From Escherichia phage AV123, in sequence record OR352953.1: a stretch of 64,000 nucleotides of DNA. One strand, 5' to 3'. The notes beneath the pieces were generated by a model. The model worked only from the letters and a program-made list of their open reading frames with translations, was not told where the DNA came from and did not search any database. Shown here piece by piece: positions 1 through 6,082 of this stretch. The position numbers were made by a program, and so were the translations under genes. The stretch's first letter is position 1; every line of letters begins with the position of its first letter.

Positions 1-582
1 ATAATACTCCTCAAACAGTTTAGTAAATGTTTTTACATCAACTACAAACCGATCTTTCCTATATGGAGAATTCTTATGTGCACCATTAATACCACTATTT
101 TCATCGAAGAAAGTAATGTTTTCTTCAGTTGAATACATTAGATAATGATCTGCATTTTTCCAATGTGGTTGTGGACAATGAGGATTACAAACGGAAAGCA
201 AGTAATTAATATTTTCCTCCGTGGCCTCAGTATCCAGGAAACACGTATTATGCACAGTCAGTTGTACTTTTTCAGCCATATCTTTTTCTTTATCCTCTTT
301 AGCAAGATATTCAGTACGAATAATCTCCAGAAAACCTTCAGGTGTTACTTCCATAAATGTATATTCAGGATGAAGCTCCATATATTCAAATCCACAACCA
401 TCTAATTGCTGTAGAAAGTTAGGGTAGAAGAACAAGTCATTAACACTGTGAATCAGATCATTGATTTCTGCTTCGGTTGTGTAACCAAAACTCTTGTGAA
501 TTGCTTCGTTAAGAATATGCAGGATACCCATCTCTTCTGCTGCTTTTTTAACTTCCAGTTTATTAGCGTAAAATGCAATCAT
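1..582 (-). CDS. hypothetical protein, partial (C-terminus beyond window start)
   Basis: ATG at 580-582 with AAGGAG RBS; minus-strand frame open for 194 codons to position 1. Confidence 0.55.
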   Translation of the reverse strand, partial: MIAFYANKLEVKKAAEEMGILHILNEAIHKSFGYTTEAEINDLIHSVNDLFFYPNFLQQLDGCGFEYMELHPEYTFMEVTPEGFLEIIRTEYLAKEDKEKDMAEKVQLTVHNTCFLDTEATEENINYLLSVCNPHCPQPHWKNADHYLMYSTEENITFFDENSGINGAHKNSPYRKDRFVVDVKTFTKLFEEYY

Positions 583-599
583 TATGTTCTCCTTCTAAA

Positions 600-1034
600 T
601 TAGTTTAAAATTTCTTTTGCAATGGTAGAAGCAAGTTTTCCATCATATTGATTCGGATACTCTGCTTTAAGGTGTTTCATCATATCTGGCATTTTCTTGC
701 CTGTCAAGGCAAATTCTTCAGCAATAGCTCGAAGATCATCTTCAGATAGCATTTCTGGCAAATATTTTTCCAGAGTGGTGATATCACGCATAGCTCGCTC
801 ACACTTGCTAATGGAGGCATTAACTTTCTTAAGTGAGTCTAGTTCCTCTTTAGCATGTGCAATACCAATCTTAACAATGTTAATCATAATATCGTCTTCT
901 GATTTATTCAGATTTGCCTTTTGAGTACGAGCAAGGTCAAACTCACCAATAATATTAGTTAACAAAGCAAAAGCACCCTTATCGGTTGTACGTGCTAAGA
1001 TACGATCTGCTTTCATTTGTGTCACAATAGACAT
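600..1034 (-). CDS. GatB/YqeY-domain protein
   Basis: 144 aa ORF; YLP..LSE and DGK..S motifs recalled from YqeY/GatB C-terminal domain proteins. Confidence 0.5.
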   Translation of the reverse strand: MSIVTQMKADRILARTTDKGAFALLTNIIGEFDLARTQKANLNKSEDDIMINIVKIGIAHAKEELDSLKKVNASISKCERAMRDITTLEKYLPEMLSEDDLRAIAEEFALTGKKMPDMMKHLKAEYPNQYDGKLASTIAKEILN

Positions 1035-1046
1035 TCTATTCTCCTC

Positions 1047-1619
1047 TTATTTGCTAATGCTTTGAATCTTATTTACAACACGGTTTATTGCCAGTGAAGC
1101 CCTAGGCTCCGCAATACCTGTTGCATAGATATAAGGATGACCTTTTGGAGACTCCCTCATACCGAATGAACCTAATTCTAAACCATATTCATCCTCTACG
1201 TCAACCCCAATATTAGTGGGTACTAAATATGTTTTAACTCCATAATAAGTAGAGAAGAAACAGCGCATAGAGTTAGCATACTCTTCAATTGTAGCATCAG
1301 GGTAGAACTCAATCAACTCCAATTTCAAGAAAATATTAAAATGGGTATCATCTAAATTTTCTTCTGTGCGGTAACATGGTGTTAGTGCCATATAAGGATT
1401 ACCTGCTGCAAATTCAAAACCATCCTTCTCCATTTGCAGGAAAGATTGTTCTGCACTAGCTACATAGTATTTACCGTTAGGATGCCCTAATGGGCGATCC
1501 TCTTTATTTTCTGGTAGTGTGTACGCCAGTATATCAGCATCCACGAGATATGGAACTTCCAACATTTGTGCAAACCGACCATAGTAATCAATAGCTTGAG
1601 CTATTACTGCAACATTCAT
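1047..1619 (-). CDS. class II aminoacyl-tRNA synthetase-like catalytic core protein (truncated paralog)
   Basis: 190 aa; CYRTEE...HFNIFLKLELIEFY resembles class IIb aaRS motif 2 (FRNE..H..EFT.lEfY); no anticodon-binding domain. Confidence 0.4.
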   Translation of the reverse strand: MNVAVIAQAIDYYGRFAQMLEVPYLVDADILAYTLPENKEDRPLGHPNGKYYVASAEQSFLQMEKDGFEFAAGNPYMALTPCYRTEENLDDTHFNIFLKLELIEFYPDATIEEYANSMRCFFSTYYGVKTYLVPTNIGVDVEDEYGLELGSFGMRESPKGHPYIYATGIAEPRASLAINRVVNKIQSISK

Positions 1620-1867
1620 GATCGACCTCCATTGCGGAATGCACGTTTAGTAATGTTCGACATAGTGATCAAATCTTGAAGCGTCATATCAGGAAAATGC
1701 TGTTCAAGAACACCTTCAACAGCGCCTACAATATCTGATAACTCAATAAGTTGCATCAGCTTGCAATCTTGATCAATAGCATCCTGAAGTTCATAAAGCT
1801 CTTCTTGAATTTTAGCAATAGAACCATATTCCTCTTTGCTAATCTCCTTCAAATGATACCCTGCCAC
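1616..1867 (-). CDS. small acidic helical protein, possibly MazG-like NTP pyrophosphohydrolase
   Basis: 83 aa; EE..E..D helical motif; stop/start overlap with neighbour. Confidence 0.35.
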   Translation of the reverse strand: MAGYHLKEISKEEYGSIAKIQEELYELQDAIDQDCKLMQLIELSDIVGAVEGVLEQHFPDMTLQDLITMSNITKRAFRNGGRS

Positions 1868-1877
1868 TTTAACCCCC

Positions 1878-3614
1878 TTAGTTTACCAGTTTATTTATGT
1901 CTGGTAAAAGATTTATTTCACCTAAAAAATCACCTTCACCTTCCTCTAGCCAACTCTCATATGCTTGTGCATGATTATAGTTACCATCAAAAGAATCTGC
2001 AACAAATTTTTCTACAGTTTTTCGAGATGTGCCAGCGCCAAATACACCAAGTTTAATACCATTGATCGGTAAAGTGGTACTTGTGGGTACTTTCTCTGTT
2101 GCAACACGGTTGATATCTATAATCTCCTGTACGGTTGTGTTCCATTGTAAGCATTTAACACAACGGGTATGCGCTACATACAGTAGGTTTCGCTCTGCCT
2201 CTTCCAGTCCTACCCATTCACCAGTCTTTTTATCATAGTTGGAAGGAAAATCATTAGCAACAATAACCTGATCCCACTCCAAACCTTTAGACTTGTGTGC
2301 TGTAGTCAGTGTGACTTTTGCTGTAGGAGAATTTCTATGCGTTCTAAGTGTATGTGCTATAGTGTTTGCCTTACCAGAAACTACGATGTTTAACAAGCGT
2401 TTAGCATCTGGATCAGCCTCTGCACACTCAACAAATTCATCCCAGTCTGCGTAAGGTAATACAGTTTCATGTTTTACTTTCTCAATATCTCCTCTACGAA
2501 GAGCATTAACACTATCTACCATAGAGATAAAATCCCTGGTATCTACGTTAATAATAATTTCTTCCCCATCTGCAATACGATCCATTGCCTCCATAAGCAA
2601 GGTTAAATTCTTGCGAAAGATGATAGTGTAAGGTTTTGTATAGTCTACAACATCTGATTTGTAGCTACCTACTACAGTATCAAAGCCTTTACCAACCAAA
2701 GGATGACGCAAAGGTTCTTTATCGCTTAAAATCATATTGGCAATGTTTGCCACTTTGGGGCCAAAACGGAAGCAAGCAGTTAATGGAAGCTCTGCCCCAT
2801 ATGTAGAGGTTTCCTTCATCATATTTTGGCTTCCACGGAACTGGTAGATGCTCTGATATTCGTCACCCACCACTACTACTTGTTTTGCAGATTTAGCATT
2901 TCGCAGAATAGACAAGAATGCAGGGTTAACATCCTGGAATTCATCCCCAAAAATAATGTCATAACCAAGATCAGCACCAGACAATTCAAACAATTTTACA
3001 TAGGTGTCATGCGTCATCAAAGTATCTGTATTAGGATCAATGCGCTCTCGCCACAATTGTTTTGCATACTTAACTACTTCTGTAATTAGTTTGTGTTCGT
3101 TAATACCTTTTCTTTTAATATCTGCAAGATGTACACCAGGAAAATGTTTACGGCTGATAAAAGGATCATCCGAAAATTCAAACTTACCTACGGTTTGCTT
3201 GATCATTAAACCAATCATAGCACGAGTTAAAAGTGTTTTCCCTCGCTTATCAATAAGATTATTAATCTTAAATTTCTTTGCTATTTCACTACCTGTACCT
3301 GCAACGTTAACATACTGTCCTTCTGGTCGTGACAGTTTTGCACGTAAACGATGATCCAGGAATTGATAGCAAATAGAATGCAATGTACGGCATTCTACAT
3401 TTAGTGGCATCTTACGTCGTGCTTCTTCTGCCATGCTTTTATTGAAAGCTAAGTAAAGAATGCGATCTTCTGTACTGTTAGCCAGCAAATAAAGTGTTGA
3501 CGTTTTGCCTGATCCAGATTTAGCTTGGATAGTTAAAAAGCGATGGTCTGGAAAAGCCTCCTTAATAGCTGTTTGCTCTTCTGTTGGAGTGAAGCTCAAC
3601 TCTTTCTTAGCCAT
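1878..3614 (-). CDS. UvrD/Rep-like SF1 DNA helicase
   Basis: Walker A AKSGSGKTST, DEFQD, VVVVGDEYQSIYQFRG; start reset to ATG 3612-3614 with GAGAGG RBS. Confidence 0.8.
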   Translation of the reverse strand: MAKKELSFTPTEEQTAIKEAFPDHRFLTIQAKSGSGKTSTLYLLANSTEDRILYLAFNKSMAEEARRKMPLNVECRTLHSICYQFLDHRLRAKLSRPEGQYVNVAGTGSEIAKKFKINNLIDKRGKTLLTRAMIGLMIKQTVGKFEFSDDPFISRKHFPGVHLADIKRKGINEHKLITEVVKYAKQLWRERIDPNTDTLMTHDTYVKLFELSGADLGYDIIFGDEFQDVNPAFLSILRNAKSAKQVVVVGDEYQSIYQFRGSQNMMKETSTYGAELPLTACFRFGPKVANIANMILSDKEPLRHPLVGKGFDTVVGSYKSDVVDYTKPYTIIFRKNLTLLMEAMDRIADGEEIIINVDTRDFISMVDSVNALRRGDIEKVKHETVLPYADWDEFVECAEADPDAKRLLNIVVSGKANTIAHTLRTHRNSPTAKVTLTTAHKSKGLEWDQVIVANDFPSNYDKKTGEWVGLEEAERNLLYVAHTRCVKCLQWNTTVQEIIDINRVATEKVPTSTTLPINGIKLGVFGAGTSRKTVEKFVADSFDGNYNHAQAYESWLEEGEGDFLGEINLLPDINKLVN

Positions 3615-3615
3615 T

Positions 3616-4092
3616 TCAACCTCTCTTAATTTGTTTAACAAGCATAGGAACAAAATCTCGTTTTAAAATTTGTTCAATAATATGATCAGGTAGCTGTTGG
3701 AAATTATAATTAAAAGCTACTGTCTCACCTTTAGGTGTTTCTACCCGCACATATAACATGTTACGAAGTTTATCCACTTGTGCTGTATATTCTAAACCAT
3801 GTAATTGATGCATTGCAAACATCAAATCATCAGTTTCAGTTTGTAATCTATCATTTGCTTGCATCAAGGACAAGGTAAAAGGTAGATTTTCCCTAAGAGC
3901 CACCTTCTTAGGAACTAGTGAAGGAAAATACTCACCAATAACTTCCTGTGTAAGCTGGATACACTCTTTTTCAAGTTGGTTTTGTTCCTTAAGTTCACAA
4001 ACACTTTTTTGTAAAGTGTTAACCTCTTTTTGCAAAGCTGCTAGTTGAGCACTTAACTTTCTTTTTTGATTACGACCAAAACGTTTAGACAT
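3616..4092 (-). CDS. hypothetical protein (coiled-coil N-terminus)
   Basis: 158 aa ORF tightly packed between neighbours. Confidence 0.55.
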   Translation of the reverse strand: MSKRFGRNQKRKLSAQLAALQKEVNTLQKSVCELKEQNQLEKECIQLTQEVIGEYFPSLVPKKVALRENLPFTLSLMQANDRLQTETDDLMFAMHQLHGLEYTAQVDKLRNMLYVRVETPKGETVAFNYNFQQLPDHIIEQILKRDFVPMLVKQIKRG

Positions 4093-4100
4093 ATTTCCCC

Positions 4101-4616
4101 CTAGTAAAACCCTTTAACAATCTGTATTAACTCGGCACAACGGTTGACCAACTTTTCCTCATACAATACACGTTGTGGCATATGTTGTATAATATACTCC
4201 ATTTGCTCATGCCATGTCCACTTTTCTTTTTTGTCTGGGATAACATCACTAGCACGAGAATTATCTTTTAATGTTTGTATAATCCAATTGCTTGGAAAGT
4301 GCTCTCCACCTTTCTTAAATGGTTTATAGTGGCCTAGAGTAAATTGAGAATCCCCTGTTAGAGCACCCAATTTATTTAGATGGATAATCAAACTACGAAA
4401 CACATAGTATTCATAGATGTTATCCACCGTATAGCAAGCATAATATTTCAAGATGCCCTTATCTCGCGGATACTTACCAACATCCAGATTGCACCAGTTG
4501 ACATTTTCTGGATCATAGTGGTGTTCCTTAAGCCATATTTCTCTTTCATCAAAGTCTGGATATATTACCGCTCTGCTTACAGAGTCAACAAGTGGAGATT
4601 GAGCATCAAAAAACAT
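4101..4616 (-). CDS. hypothetical protein
   Basis: 171 aa ORF. Confidence 0.55.
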   Translation of the reverse strand: MFFDAQSPLVDSVSRAVIYPDFDEREIWLKEHHYDPENVNWCNLDVGKYPRDKGILKYYACYTVDNIYEYYVFRSLIIHLNKLGALTGDSQFTLGHYKPFKKGGEHFPSNWIIQTLKDNSRASDVIPDKKEKWTWHEQMEYIIQHMPQRVLYEEKLVNRCAELIQIVKGFY

Positions 4617-5719: not shown

Positions 5720-6082
5720 TTATTTCTCCTTATCATCATATTCTAGGAACATATCTGCACGATATGCTTTACGCTCTTCAAACTTAGCAGGATCTACAAC
5801 AATAAGCAATACAAGGTTAACATCTAAATACTTCTTAACAAATAGAAATAAATCTTTTCCACAGTTAAAACCTACACCAGTATAGGCATCCCCATATTGA
5901 TCTACTGATTTAATCTTCTTACTAACCGTACACTCTATGCTATTCTTTTCTTCTTGGTATAAGGCTTTCCCACCCCAATATGTAAAGAATTTAGTACCGT
6001 CAGCACCAAGTTTAAAACCCTCTGTTGCATGTCCCGCAAATGAAAGTAAACATAACCAAGTGATCATCAGGTACTTTAGCAT
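5720..6082 (-). CDS. secreted protein with N-terminal signal peptide
   Basis: MLKYLMITWLCLLSFAGHA signal-like N-terminus; ATG 6080-6082 with GGGTGG RBS. Confidence 0.55.
   Translation of the reverse strand: MLKYLMITWLCLLSFAGHATEGFKLGADGTKFFTYWGGKALYQEEKNSIECTVSKKIKSVDQYGDAYTGVGFNCGKDLFLFVKKYLDVNLVLLIVVDPAKFEERKAYRADMFLEYDDKEK

Follow-up and report, generated by a model that had tools for sequence, protein, structure and literature searches.

In the DNA of Escherichia phage AV123 (sequence record OR352953.1), of which a stretch of 64,000 nucleotides was analysed (hereafter the window), a gene for a MazG-like protein of 83 amino acids (aa) lies next to a gene for a 190-aa protein related to class II aminoacyl-tRNA synthetases (aaRS). 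Comparison with related loci showed that these two genes encode two parts of one conserved enzyme, which occurs mostly in phages, and that the active-site signatures of both parts are under strict conservation. A first-pass annotation of the window, which belongs to a phi92-like coliphage (Stephanstirmvirinae, Justusliebigvirus), had reported three tightly linked genes at positions 600-1867, the third one coding for a protein with a YqeY/GatB C-terminal domain. The coordinates, the protein sizes and the lack of an anticodon-binding domain in the aaRS-like protein were all confirmed.

According to the listing of open reading frames (ORFs), all three genes are located on the minus strand and exactly within 600-1867. 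The gene of the 83-aa HisE/MazG-like protein (phrog_6408, match E=2e-43) occupies positions 1616-1867 and begins with GTG; that of the 190-aa SerRS-type class II aaRS catalytic core (phrog_4806, E=2.7e-71) occupies 1047-1619 and begins with ATG. Direct reading of the sequence revealed that their stop and start codons overlap as ATGA at 1616-1619 (minus strand) and that a GGAGG element is placed 7 nt upstream of the ATG, which suggests translational coupling. In most related loci the junction between the two genes measures -5 to +19 nt.

To define the conserved unit, 80 viral loci and one GenBank relative (81 in total) were examined together with 15 loci from genomes or metagenome-assembled genomes (MAGs), covering aaRS-like homologues down to 29% identity; single loci are given below by their L numbers. 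The MazG-like and aaRS-like genes were adjacent and co-oriented in 92 of the 96 loci, fused genes included. A MazG-like neighbour on the same strand was present in 79 of the 81 viral loci, where it preceded the aaRS-like gene in 62, followed it in 12 and was part of its ORF in 5, and the MAG loci contained the pair in 13 of 15 cases, 3 of those being fused. Altogether, 8 loci contained a fusion and 16 distinct fused proteins were found; the order was aaRS::MazG in every case, with a linker of 5-10 aa. In sequenced phages the aaRS-like gene was found in 272 records and the MazG-like gene in 262, with equal counts per host genus. Clustering by blastp of all ORFs within 4 kb, searched for a third conserved partner, yielded lineage-restricted families only, and Pfam scans of 267 flanking ORFs revealed nothing recurrent around the pair. 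One bacterial-looking contig carried the fused gene without companions. Because no other neighbour is conserved and the fused gene also occurs alone, the two-domain unit looks self-sufficient. The 83-aa protein is an obligate partner of the aaRS-like core. In this unit, a core of about 180 aa that descends from a class II aaRS of the SerRS type is combined with an Mg2+/nucleotide module of about 80 aa of the HisE/MazG type.

When the 190-aa protein was searched as a single sequence, neither the PDB nor NCBIfam gave a match, and a profile was required to find relatives in the PDB. Diverse homologues were available (n=58, identity down to 32%), and the family profile retrieved SerRS (2dq3, E=9e-5) first, followed by AspRS, PylRS and AsnRS. 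The AlphaFold2 (AF2) model of the protein (pLDDT 95, pTM 0.89) matched PylRS and SerRS catalytic domains in a Foldseek search of the PDB with E values of 5e-10 to 1e-8 and TM scores up to 0.74. At E<=1e-3, 568 PDB chains were matched; the top 50 were all PylRS or SerRS catalytic domains, and no biotin or lipoate ligase was among them. Profile and predicted structure thus agree on the aaRS-like fold that the first-pass annotation had proposed. Its label of a class IIb motif-2-like segment is not the most fitting one as to subclass, since the closest relative, SerRS, is a class IIa enzyme. The PHROG name of phrog_4806 is 'histidyl tRNA synthetase'; a HisRS/HisZ identity was rejected, as the 34 PDB sequences matched by the profile were SerRS, AspRS, PylRS and AsnRS only.

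Alignment of the family with E. coli SerRS by hhalign (probability 89%, E=2.4e-6) paired VPYLV with motif 1, SAE with TAE, and TPCYRTE...H..FLKLE with TPCFRSE...HQFDKVE. This covers the N-terminal half of the core; in the C-terminal half, which was matched by pattern only, ELGS resembles the EISS site of SerRS and TGIAEPR resembles SGLAVGR of motif 3. Hence motifs 1 (P23), 2 and 3 (R173) of class II aaRS are all present, and the predicted fold, with its antiparallel beta-sheet, is that of class II as well. In 389 family sequences, with identity down to 29%, S55, E57, C82, R84, F97, K99, E101, E148, G150, S151, T167, P172 and R173 were conserved at about 100%; among the motif residues, conservation amounted to 96% for P23, 100% for R84, 93% for E/D86, 100% for F97, 94% for G168 and 100% for R173. 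In T. thermophilus SerRS, these are the residues that bind ATP, Mg2+ and serine, and since they are conserved, the adenylate-forming site is probably intact.

In the alignment, SerRS residue 186 is paired with a position 13 residues after the start of the 190-aa protein, and the N-terminal coiled-coil arm is missing, as is any anticodon-binding domain. The hairpin and insertion that precede motif 3 in SerRS are deleted, and the motif-2 loop is 6 residues shorter than in E. coli SerRS in the hhalign alignment. Compared with bacterial-type SerRS, the core has in common the class II fold, motifs 1-3, an SAE resembling TAE, TPC(F/Y)RxE, FxKxE, ExxS and (S/T)GxAxxR, whereas SerRS is a protein of about 430 aa with a coiled-coil arm and is not known to have a MazG-like partner. 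By its sequence and modelled structure, the 190-aa protein is predicted to be a minimal class II aaRS catalytic core, nearest to SerRS and PylRS. Its placement in the SerRS-type subclass is moderately secure; it is opposed by the single-sequence Pfam matches of family members, which were class IIb and PheRS-type models and not the SerRS-type model.

The 83-aa protein likewise required a profile, since it found no match in the PDB as a single sequence; the NCBIfam scan was negative, too. In 69 homologues from 69 loci, Y4, H5, I9, K19, E22, E23, E26, E42, D45 and R82 were invariant. The signature K..EExxE...ExxD of HisE/MazG pyrophosphohydrolases is present, with E22, E23, E26, E42 and D45 being invariant and D29 variable (E or S in a few members). 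A Pfam search with the 69 homologues produced PRA-PH matches (E<=0.1) for 53 of them, the best at E=2.4e-5, and MazG matches for 7; the AV123 protein itself reached 14.5 bits, below the 21.3-bit cut-off. The family profile matched a Sulfolobus MazG and a HisE in the PDB at E about 0.08. The AF2 model (pLDDT 90) consists of three helices, and the residues of the metal-binding motif are located on helices 17-32 and 36-57. Its best seven Foldseek matches in the PDB were all HisE or MazG proteins (probability up to 0.95, E about 1). The HisE/MazG assignment is supported by motif and profile, not by the fold alone, and the name MazG-like given to the protein before was appropriate.

We also considered that the 83-aa protein might be a carrier protein, as its ELSD sequence is similar to the DSL motif of acyl carrier proteins. 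This was excluded because S44 varies (Ala or Cys replaces it in several members), in contrast to the invariant acidic MazG motif. A comparable setting is known from the amino acid:[carrier protein] ligases of Bradyrhizobium and Agrobacterium, which are truncated SerRS homologues without tRNA-binding domain encoded beside a helical protein of about 80 aa. However, those ligases derive from the methanogen-type, zinc-dependent SerRS, and the 80-aa partner of the pair is not a carrier protein. Both the MazG-like and the aaRS-like proteins are acidic, with a median pI of about 5.1. The MazG-like protein of T4-like Acinetobacter phages reaches 207 aa through a conserved C-terminal extension of about 127 aa (L099:4357-4980 from Acinetobacter phage AM101, and L021, L035, L041), and on the T4-type gene map the pair falls into the nrdC region.

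The third gene (positions 600-1034, minus strand, ATG start; phrog_1460, E=1.5e-36) follows the aaRS-like gene after a gap of 12 nt and codes for the 144-aa protein. A Shine-Dalgarno-like site precedes each of the three starts, no terminator-like site was found on the minus strand within 600-1900, and all three ORFs are annotated as genes in 55 near-identical phage genomes. In AV123 this gene is co-transcribed with the pair and encodes a real YqeY protein. Its sole Pfam match above threshold was YqeY (PF09424, GatB_Yqey clan) with 30.3 bits against a cut-off of 27 (E=5.3e-7), the best stretch being residues 38-143, and in the PDB it matched B. subtilis YqeY (1ng6, E=1.1e-4) and a further YqeY (8xjg, E=0.01). 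The domain named by the first-pass annotation was thus found, and profile and structure comparisons placed none of the three proteins in an unrelated fold. No GatB_N or other catalytic-domain Pfam match was obtained, and NCBIfam returned chance-level matches only (E>0.01, far under cut-off). A GatB-type amidotransferase was accordingly rejected as identity of the 144-aa protein, which holds the YqeY/GatB tail domain only. The same full-length domain is known from YqeY itself, from the C-terminus of GatB and from the C-terminal YqeY domain of Deinococcus GlnRS; unlike GatB, the 144-aa protein is stand-alone, phage-encoded and devoid of the amidotransferase catalytic domain.

The YqeY gene did not share the distribution of the pair. 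An iterated hidden Markov model search placed it beside the pair only in loci of the L001-L003 type. This adjacency is confined to Justusliebigvirus (phi92-like phages) and a small number of Klebsiella phages; Phapecoctavirus (L004), the sister genus, lacks the gene. By tblastn, YqeY was found in 151 phage records, mainly of Vibrio, Sinorhizobium and T5-like phages, a distribution unlike that of the pair. Considering the adjacency, fusions and matching distribution of the pair against the local adjacency of YqeY, the unit is the pair and not the trio. The expected conservation of a three-gene module across related phages was therefore not borne out, and the proposed role in transamidation is without support, as only a tail domain is present. 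YqeY is a lineage-specific neighbour rather than part of the core machine. The tail domain of GatB and the C-terminal YqeY appendage of Deinococcus GlnRS bind tRNA, and the 144-aa protein is possibly a tRNA-binding accessory.

In a full HMMER scan of clusters at 50% identity, 1,598 were assigned to the aaRS-like family at E<=1e-3 and 1,068 at the stricter limit of E<=1e-30. Most members reside on phage or phage-like contigs of 140-580 kb. The non-viral range comprises DPANN archaea, CPR (Candidate Phyla Radiation) bacteria and other bacteria, and a single fused polypeptide occurs in some phages, DPANN archaea and bacteria. The pair is also carried by a Mesorhizobium chromosome. In a Woesearchaeota contig the fused gene lies amid housekeeping genes, with RtcA, Trm1, a tRNA_bind protein and AlaX nearby. 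In DPANN contigs a divergent 272-aa ORF was observed upstream of the fused aaRS::MazG gene in four loci and a 227-aa radical-SAM gene downstream in three (neighbourhoods L101:6577-9474, L086:5033-7457, L093:4996-7454 and L088:5072-5941); the surroundings in L101 are archaeal housekeeping and translation genes. The radical-SAM protein had weak generic matches to MoaA, viperin and NrdG, and NCBIfam assigned neither this gene nor its 272-aa neighbour. In one DPANN contig a P-loop AAA_28 gene is located just upstream of the pair.

Genes of nucleotide metabolism recur near the pair, encoding ribonucleotide reductase (RNR), thymidylate synthase, dCMP deaminase and a dATP/dGTP diphosphohydrolase domain; RlaP, PTH2, RNA ligases and DSP phosphatases are found there as well. 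Of 85 non-redundant loci, 21 had a tRNA gene no more than 6 kb from the pair, 11 had one within 1.5 kb and 8 had at least 5 tRNAs, counts for which there is no proper null. In several large phages the pair lies inside or is flanked by tRNA arrays (L026, L028, L038, L040, L043, L055, L057, L058 and L071, around position 6000), where as many as 18 tRNAs occur within 6 kb; one of these loci also has a tmRNA. The tRNAs adjoining the pair showed no preference for tRNASer. In the 64-kb window of AV123 no tRNA genes were found.

Additional domains are joined to the pair in some lineages. The MazG-like module bears an N-terminally fused cupin domain, phrog_4784, in L034:5070-6014, L047:5175-5999, L050:4953-5855, L044:6567-7433 and L100:7196-8014; in L089:6516-7211 this cupin is encoded by a separate gene. 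Its metal site (IHDH...H) is similar to the 3-His site of cysteine dioxygenase, with H43, H59-D-H61, C96, Y129 and H137 being invariant; there was no Pfam match and no relative in the PDB. As it accompanies the pair in only about 6 loci in all, this cysteine dioxygenase-like cupin was rejected as a conserved third partner. In L066:5743-6594 and L080, which come from Caulobacter phages (CcrPW-like, phiCbK-like), an alpha-CTD-like helix-hairpin-helix domain precedes the core. It matches Pfam RNA_pol_A_CTD above threshold (E=3e-6), which hints at nucleic-acid binding.

What reaction might the pair catalyse? Our tentative preference is that the core transfers an amino acid to an acceptor of the nucleotide type, which the MazG-like partner handles. 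In the first step, the core would most likely bind ATP and L-serine, or a close analogue, to form an aminoacyl-adenylate and pyrophosphate (PPi). Formation of a serine adenylate from ATP is made likely by the retention of P23, S55-A-E57, R84, E86, F97, E101, E148xxS151 (the Mg2+/serine site) and T167...R173. Because the coiled-coil arm and 6 residues of the motif-2 loop have been lost, both of which read tRNASer, the core is presumably not a stand-alone SerRS, and canonical tRNA charging, one of the functions suggested earlier, is unlikely since the tRNA-recognition elements are absent. The alternative suggestion of an ATP-dependent amino-acid ligase agrees with an intact adenylate-forming site and lost tRNA recognition. 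In the second step, the MazG-like subunit would bind or make the nucleotide-type acceptor, for example by converting a nucleoside triphosphate (NTP) to the monophosphate (NMP) and PPi, and the activated amino acid would be transferred to it. Modification of nucleotides or RNA ends, salvage and counter-defence are candidate purposes.

A nucleotide acceptor is favoured because the sole invariant partner belongs to a family whose only known substrates are free NTPs. It is favoured also because the fused enzyme appears self-sufficient, and the MazZ-PurZ pair of phages with 2-aminoadenine (Z) genomes is a phage precedent. There, a MazG-like enzyme feeds an NMP to an ATP-dependent ligase of amino acid and nucleotide, the same logic as proposed here, although PurZ is an adenylosuccinate-synthetase homologue and not a class II aaRS, a MazZ-PurZ fusion is not known, and the phages carrying our pair offer no evidence of modified DNA. 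The acidic character of both proteins, the neighbouring genes of nucleotide metabolism and the AAA_28 and radical-SAM neighbours in DPANN contigs were counted for transfer to a nucleotide, too.

The main rival explanation keeps the pair in tRNA biology, as a split minimal seryl- (or other aminoacyl-) tRNA synthetase or an enzyme directed at the tRNA 3' end. RNA would be bound by helpers (YqeY in phi92-like phages, the helix-hairpin-helix/alpha-CTD-like domain in phiCbK-like phages) and the MazG-like subunit would assist at the acceptor end, similar to the split PylSc/PylSn system. In Desulfitobacterium, PylSc is likewise a small stand-alone class II core with a separately encoded small helper, and the PylSc catalytic domain (2znj, 3dsq) was among the best structural matches of our core. 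However, PylSn is a tRNA-binding domain, whereas the invariant helper of the pair is an acidic module of the nucleotide-hydrolase (HisE/MazG) type and not an RNA-binding one, and identity of the core to PylRS is only about 16%. The complete conservation of SerRS-type active-site residues fits a synthetase well, but the coiled-coil arm is missing, the motif-2 loop is shortened by 6 residues and both proteins are acidic. Among the genomic contexts that point to RNA, YqeY with its tRNA-binding relatives directly follows the pair in AV123, yet most pair-carrying phages are without it, and the location in or beside tRNA arrays (a tRNA within 1.5 kb in 11 of 85 loci, at least 5 tRNAs in 8) comes without tRNASer preference and with an enrichment that has no proper null. 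PTH2, RlaP and RNA ligases nearby, the RtcA, Trm1, tRNA_bind and AlaX genes of the Woesearchaeota contig and the N-terminal alpha-CTD-like fusions of L066 and L080 also speak for a tRNA-directed enzyme. Taken together, we regard this explanation as serious but unlikely.

Three further explanations appear less likely. The aaRS-like protein might be a non-catalytic, HisZ-like sensor of amino acid or ATP that regulates the MazG-like NTP pyrophosphohydrolase and thereby tunes nucleotide pools. Indeed, the HisRS-like HisZ shares the histidine biosynthesis pathway with HisE, so that HisZ-HisG-HisE likewise links a class II aaRS-like protein functionally to a HisE-type pyrophosphohydrolase; the small partner matches PRA-PH/HisE best, and phage MazG-type enzymes acting on nucleotide pools are known. 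Nevertheless, R84, F97, E148, S151 and R173 are conserved at about 100% in the 389 sequences, which would be unexpected for a purely regulatory paralogue, while the catalytic residues of HisZ are degenerate. Neither HisRS nor HisZ occurred among the PDB matches or showed similarity to the core, and no HisG is conserved near the pair; a sensor appears improbable. Quite improbable, in our view, is an enzyme of the EpmA (PoxA/GenX) kind that aminoacylates a protein, e.g. a translation factor, with the MazG-like module as adaptor. EpmA is an established precedent for a class II paralogue that lacks the anticodon-binding domain and passes its adenylate to a non-tRNA acceptor, a protein, and the radical-SAM gene that follows the fused gene in three DPANN loci, with translation genes nearby in the archaeal contig, recalls EpmB beside EpmA. 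But EpmA is derived from LysRS, measures about 325 aa and was not found among the PDB matches of the core. The archaeal radical-SAM protein has only 227 aa and does not belong to the KamA-type aminomutases; it resembles KamA/EpmB weakly and in the generic iron-sulfur core only, the gene is absent from phage loci, and no conserved candidate protein substrate is encoded near the pair. Finally, the three genes could be unrelated accessory genes that became chance neighbours in a variable early-gene region. For YqeY, with its local adjacency and different distribution, this is probably true, and other neighbours are highly variable as well; for the pair it is excluded by 92 co-oriented adjacencies in 96 loci, independent fusions and matching phyletic patterns, so that the absence of any module is very improbable.

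With regard to the surroundings in AV123, the region 400-4200 of the window shares 99.1% identity with Escherichia phage Nernie, and 55 phage records match it with an identity of 95% or more. Directly upstream of the trio lies a gene for a UvrD-type helicase (1878-3653). At the other side, a further minus-strand gene begins at 580 within 1-580, with a ribosome-binding site 8 nt past the YqeY stop, and exits the window at its left end; its counterpart in relatives encodes 316 aa without Pfam match (L001:5236-6183). Beyond this end, phage vB-Eco-KMB37 (L001:1-2856) contains genes for a ComF-like phosphoribosyltransferase (PF15610, E=1e-35), a HAD hydrolase and an AAA ATPase. In relatives this set is found downstream of the trio and of anaerobic RNR genes, and it is reminiscent of predicted biosynthesis systems for nucleoside-like metabolites ('Ter-associated'). 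In phages Antha, arall, muut, ALITA and ESCO32 the match to the region 400-4200 is broken into two pieces and extends over about 4.84 kb, against 3.80 kb in the window, from which an insertion of about 1 kb, outside the YqeY/aaRS-like junction, can be deduced in these relatives. It is possibly a homing endonuclease, as the annotation of KMB37 has an HNH gene in the vicinity. The records MG065639.1 and MG065656.1 (146,366 bp), which bear the name 'Campylobacter phage A150/C3', contain a YqeY gene and an aaRS-like gene that share 99.5-100% identity with their counterparts in E. coli phi92-like phages, which suggests that these records are mislabelled or contaminant.

The gene types described here are known as such, and databases already hold automated names for them: 'histidyl tRNA synthetase', 'putative seryl-tRNA synthetase', 'tRNA amidotransferase' and 'MazG-like'. 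Two of these names are misleading, and 'tRNA amidotransferase' overstates what is known. A full-text literature search, which included comparative genomics of jumbo phages and viral NAD/RNA-repair systems, returned no description of the obligate pairing or fusion, the family size or the DPANN/bacterial reach; for these, the new part of this work, we found no paper. An obligate MazG/HisE-type partner of a class II core is unprecedented, and the public names conflict with each other. The family is large: 272 sequenced phage isolates have it, among them well-studied phages of E. coli, Acinetobacter and Caulobacter, and the genes occur in genetically tractable coliphages such as phi92 and phages of the BASEL collection.

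Paralogues of aaRS with non-translational tasks, namely HisZ, AsnA, EpmA and the amino acid:[carrier protein] ligases, have each brought new chemistry. A natural class II core of 180 aa bears on ideas about minimal synthetases ('urzymes'). It is conceivable, albeit doubtful, that the core of about 180 aa with its 80-aa helper is the smallest natural class II aminoacyl-adenylate enzyme, transferring serine or a related amino acid to a nucleotide or an RNA/tRNA end independently of tRNA identity. If true, this would represent a new class of aminoacyl-nucleotide metabolites, a nucleic-acid modification or a step of tRNA repair or counter-defence. Phages, DPANN archaea and CPR bacteria all contain members of the family, which hints at a function that is useful to genome-reduced parasites.

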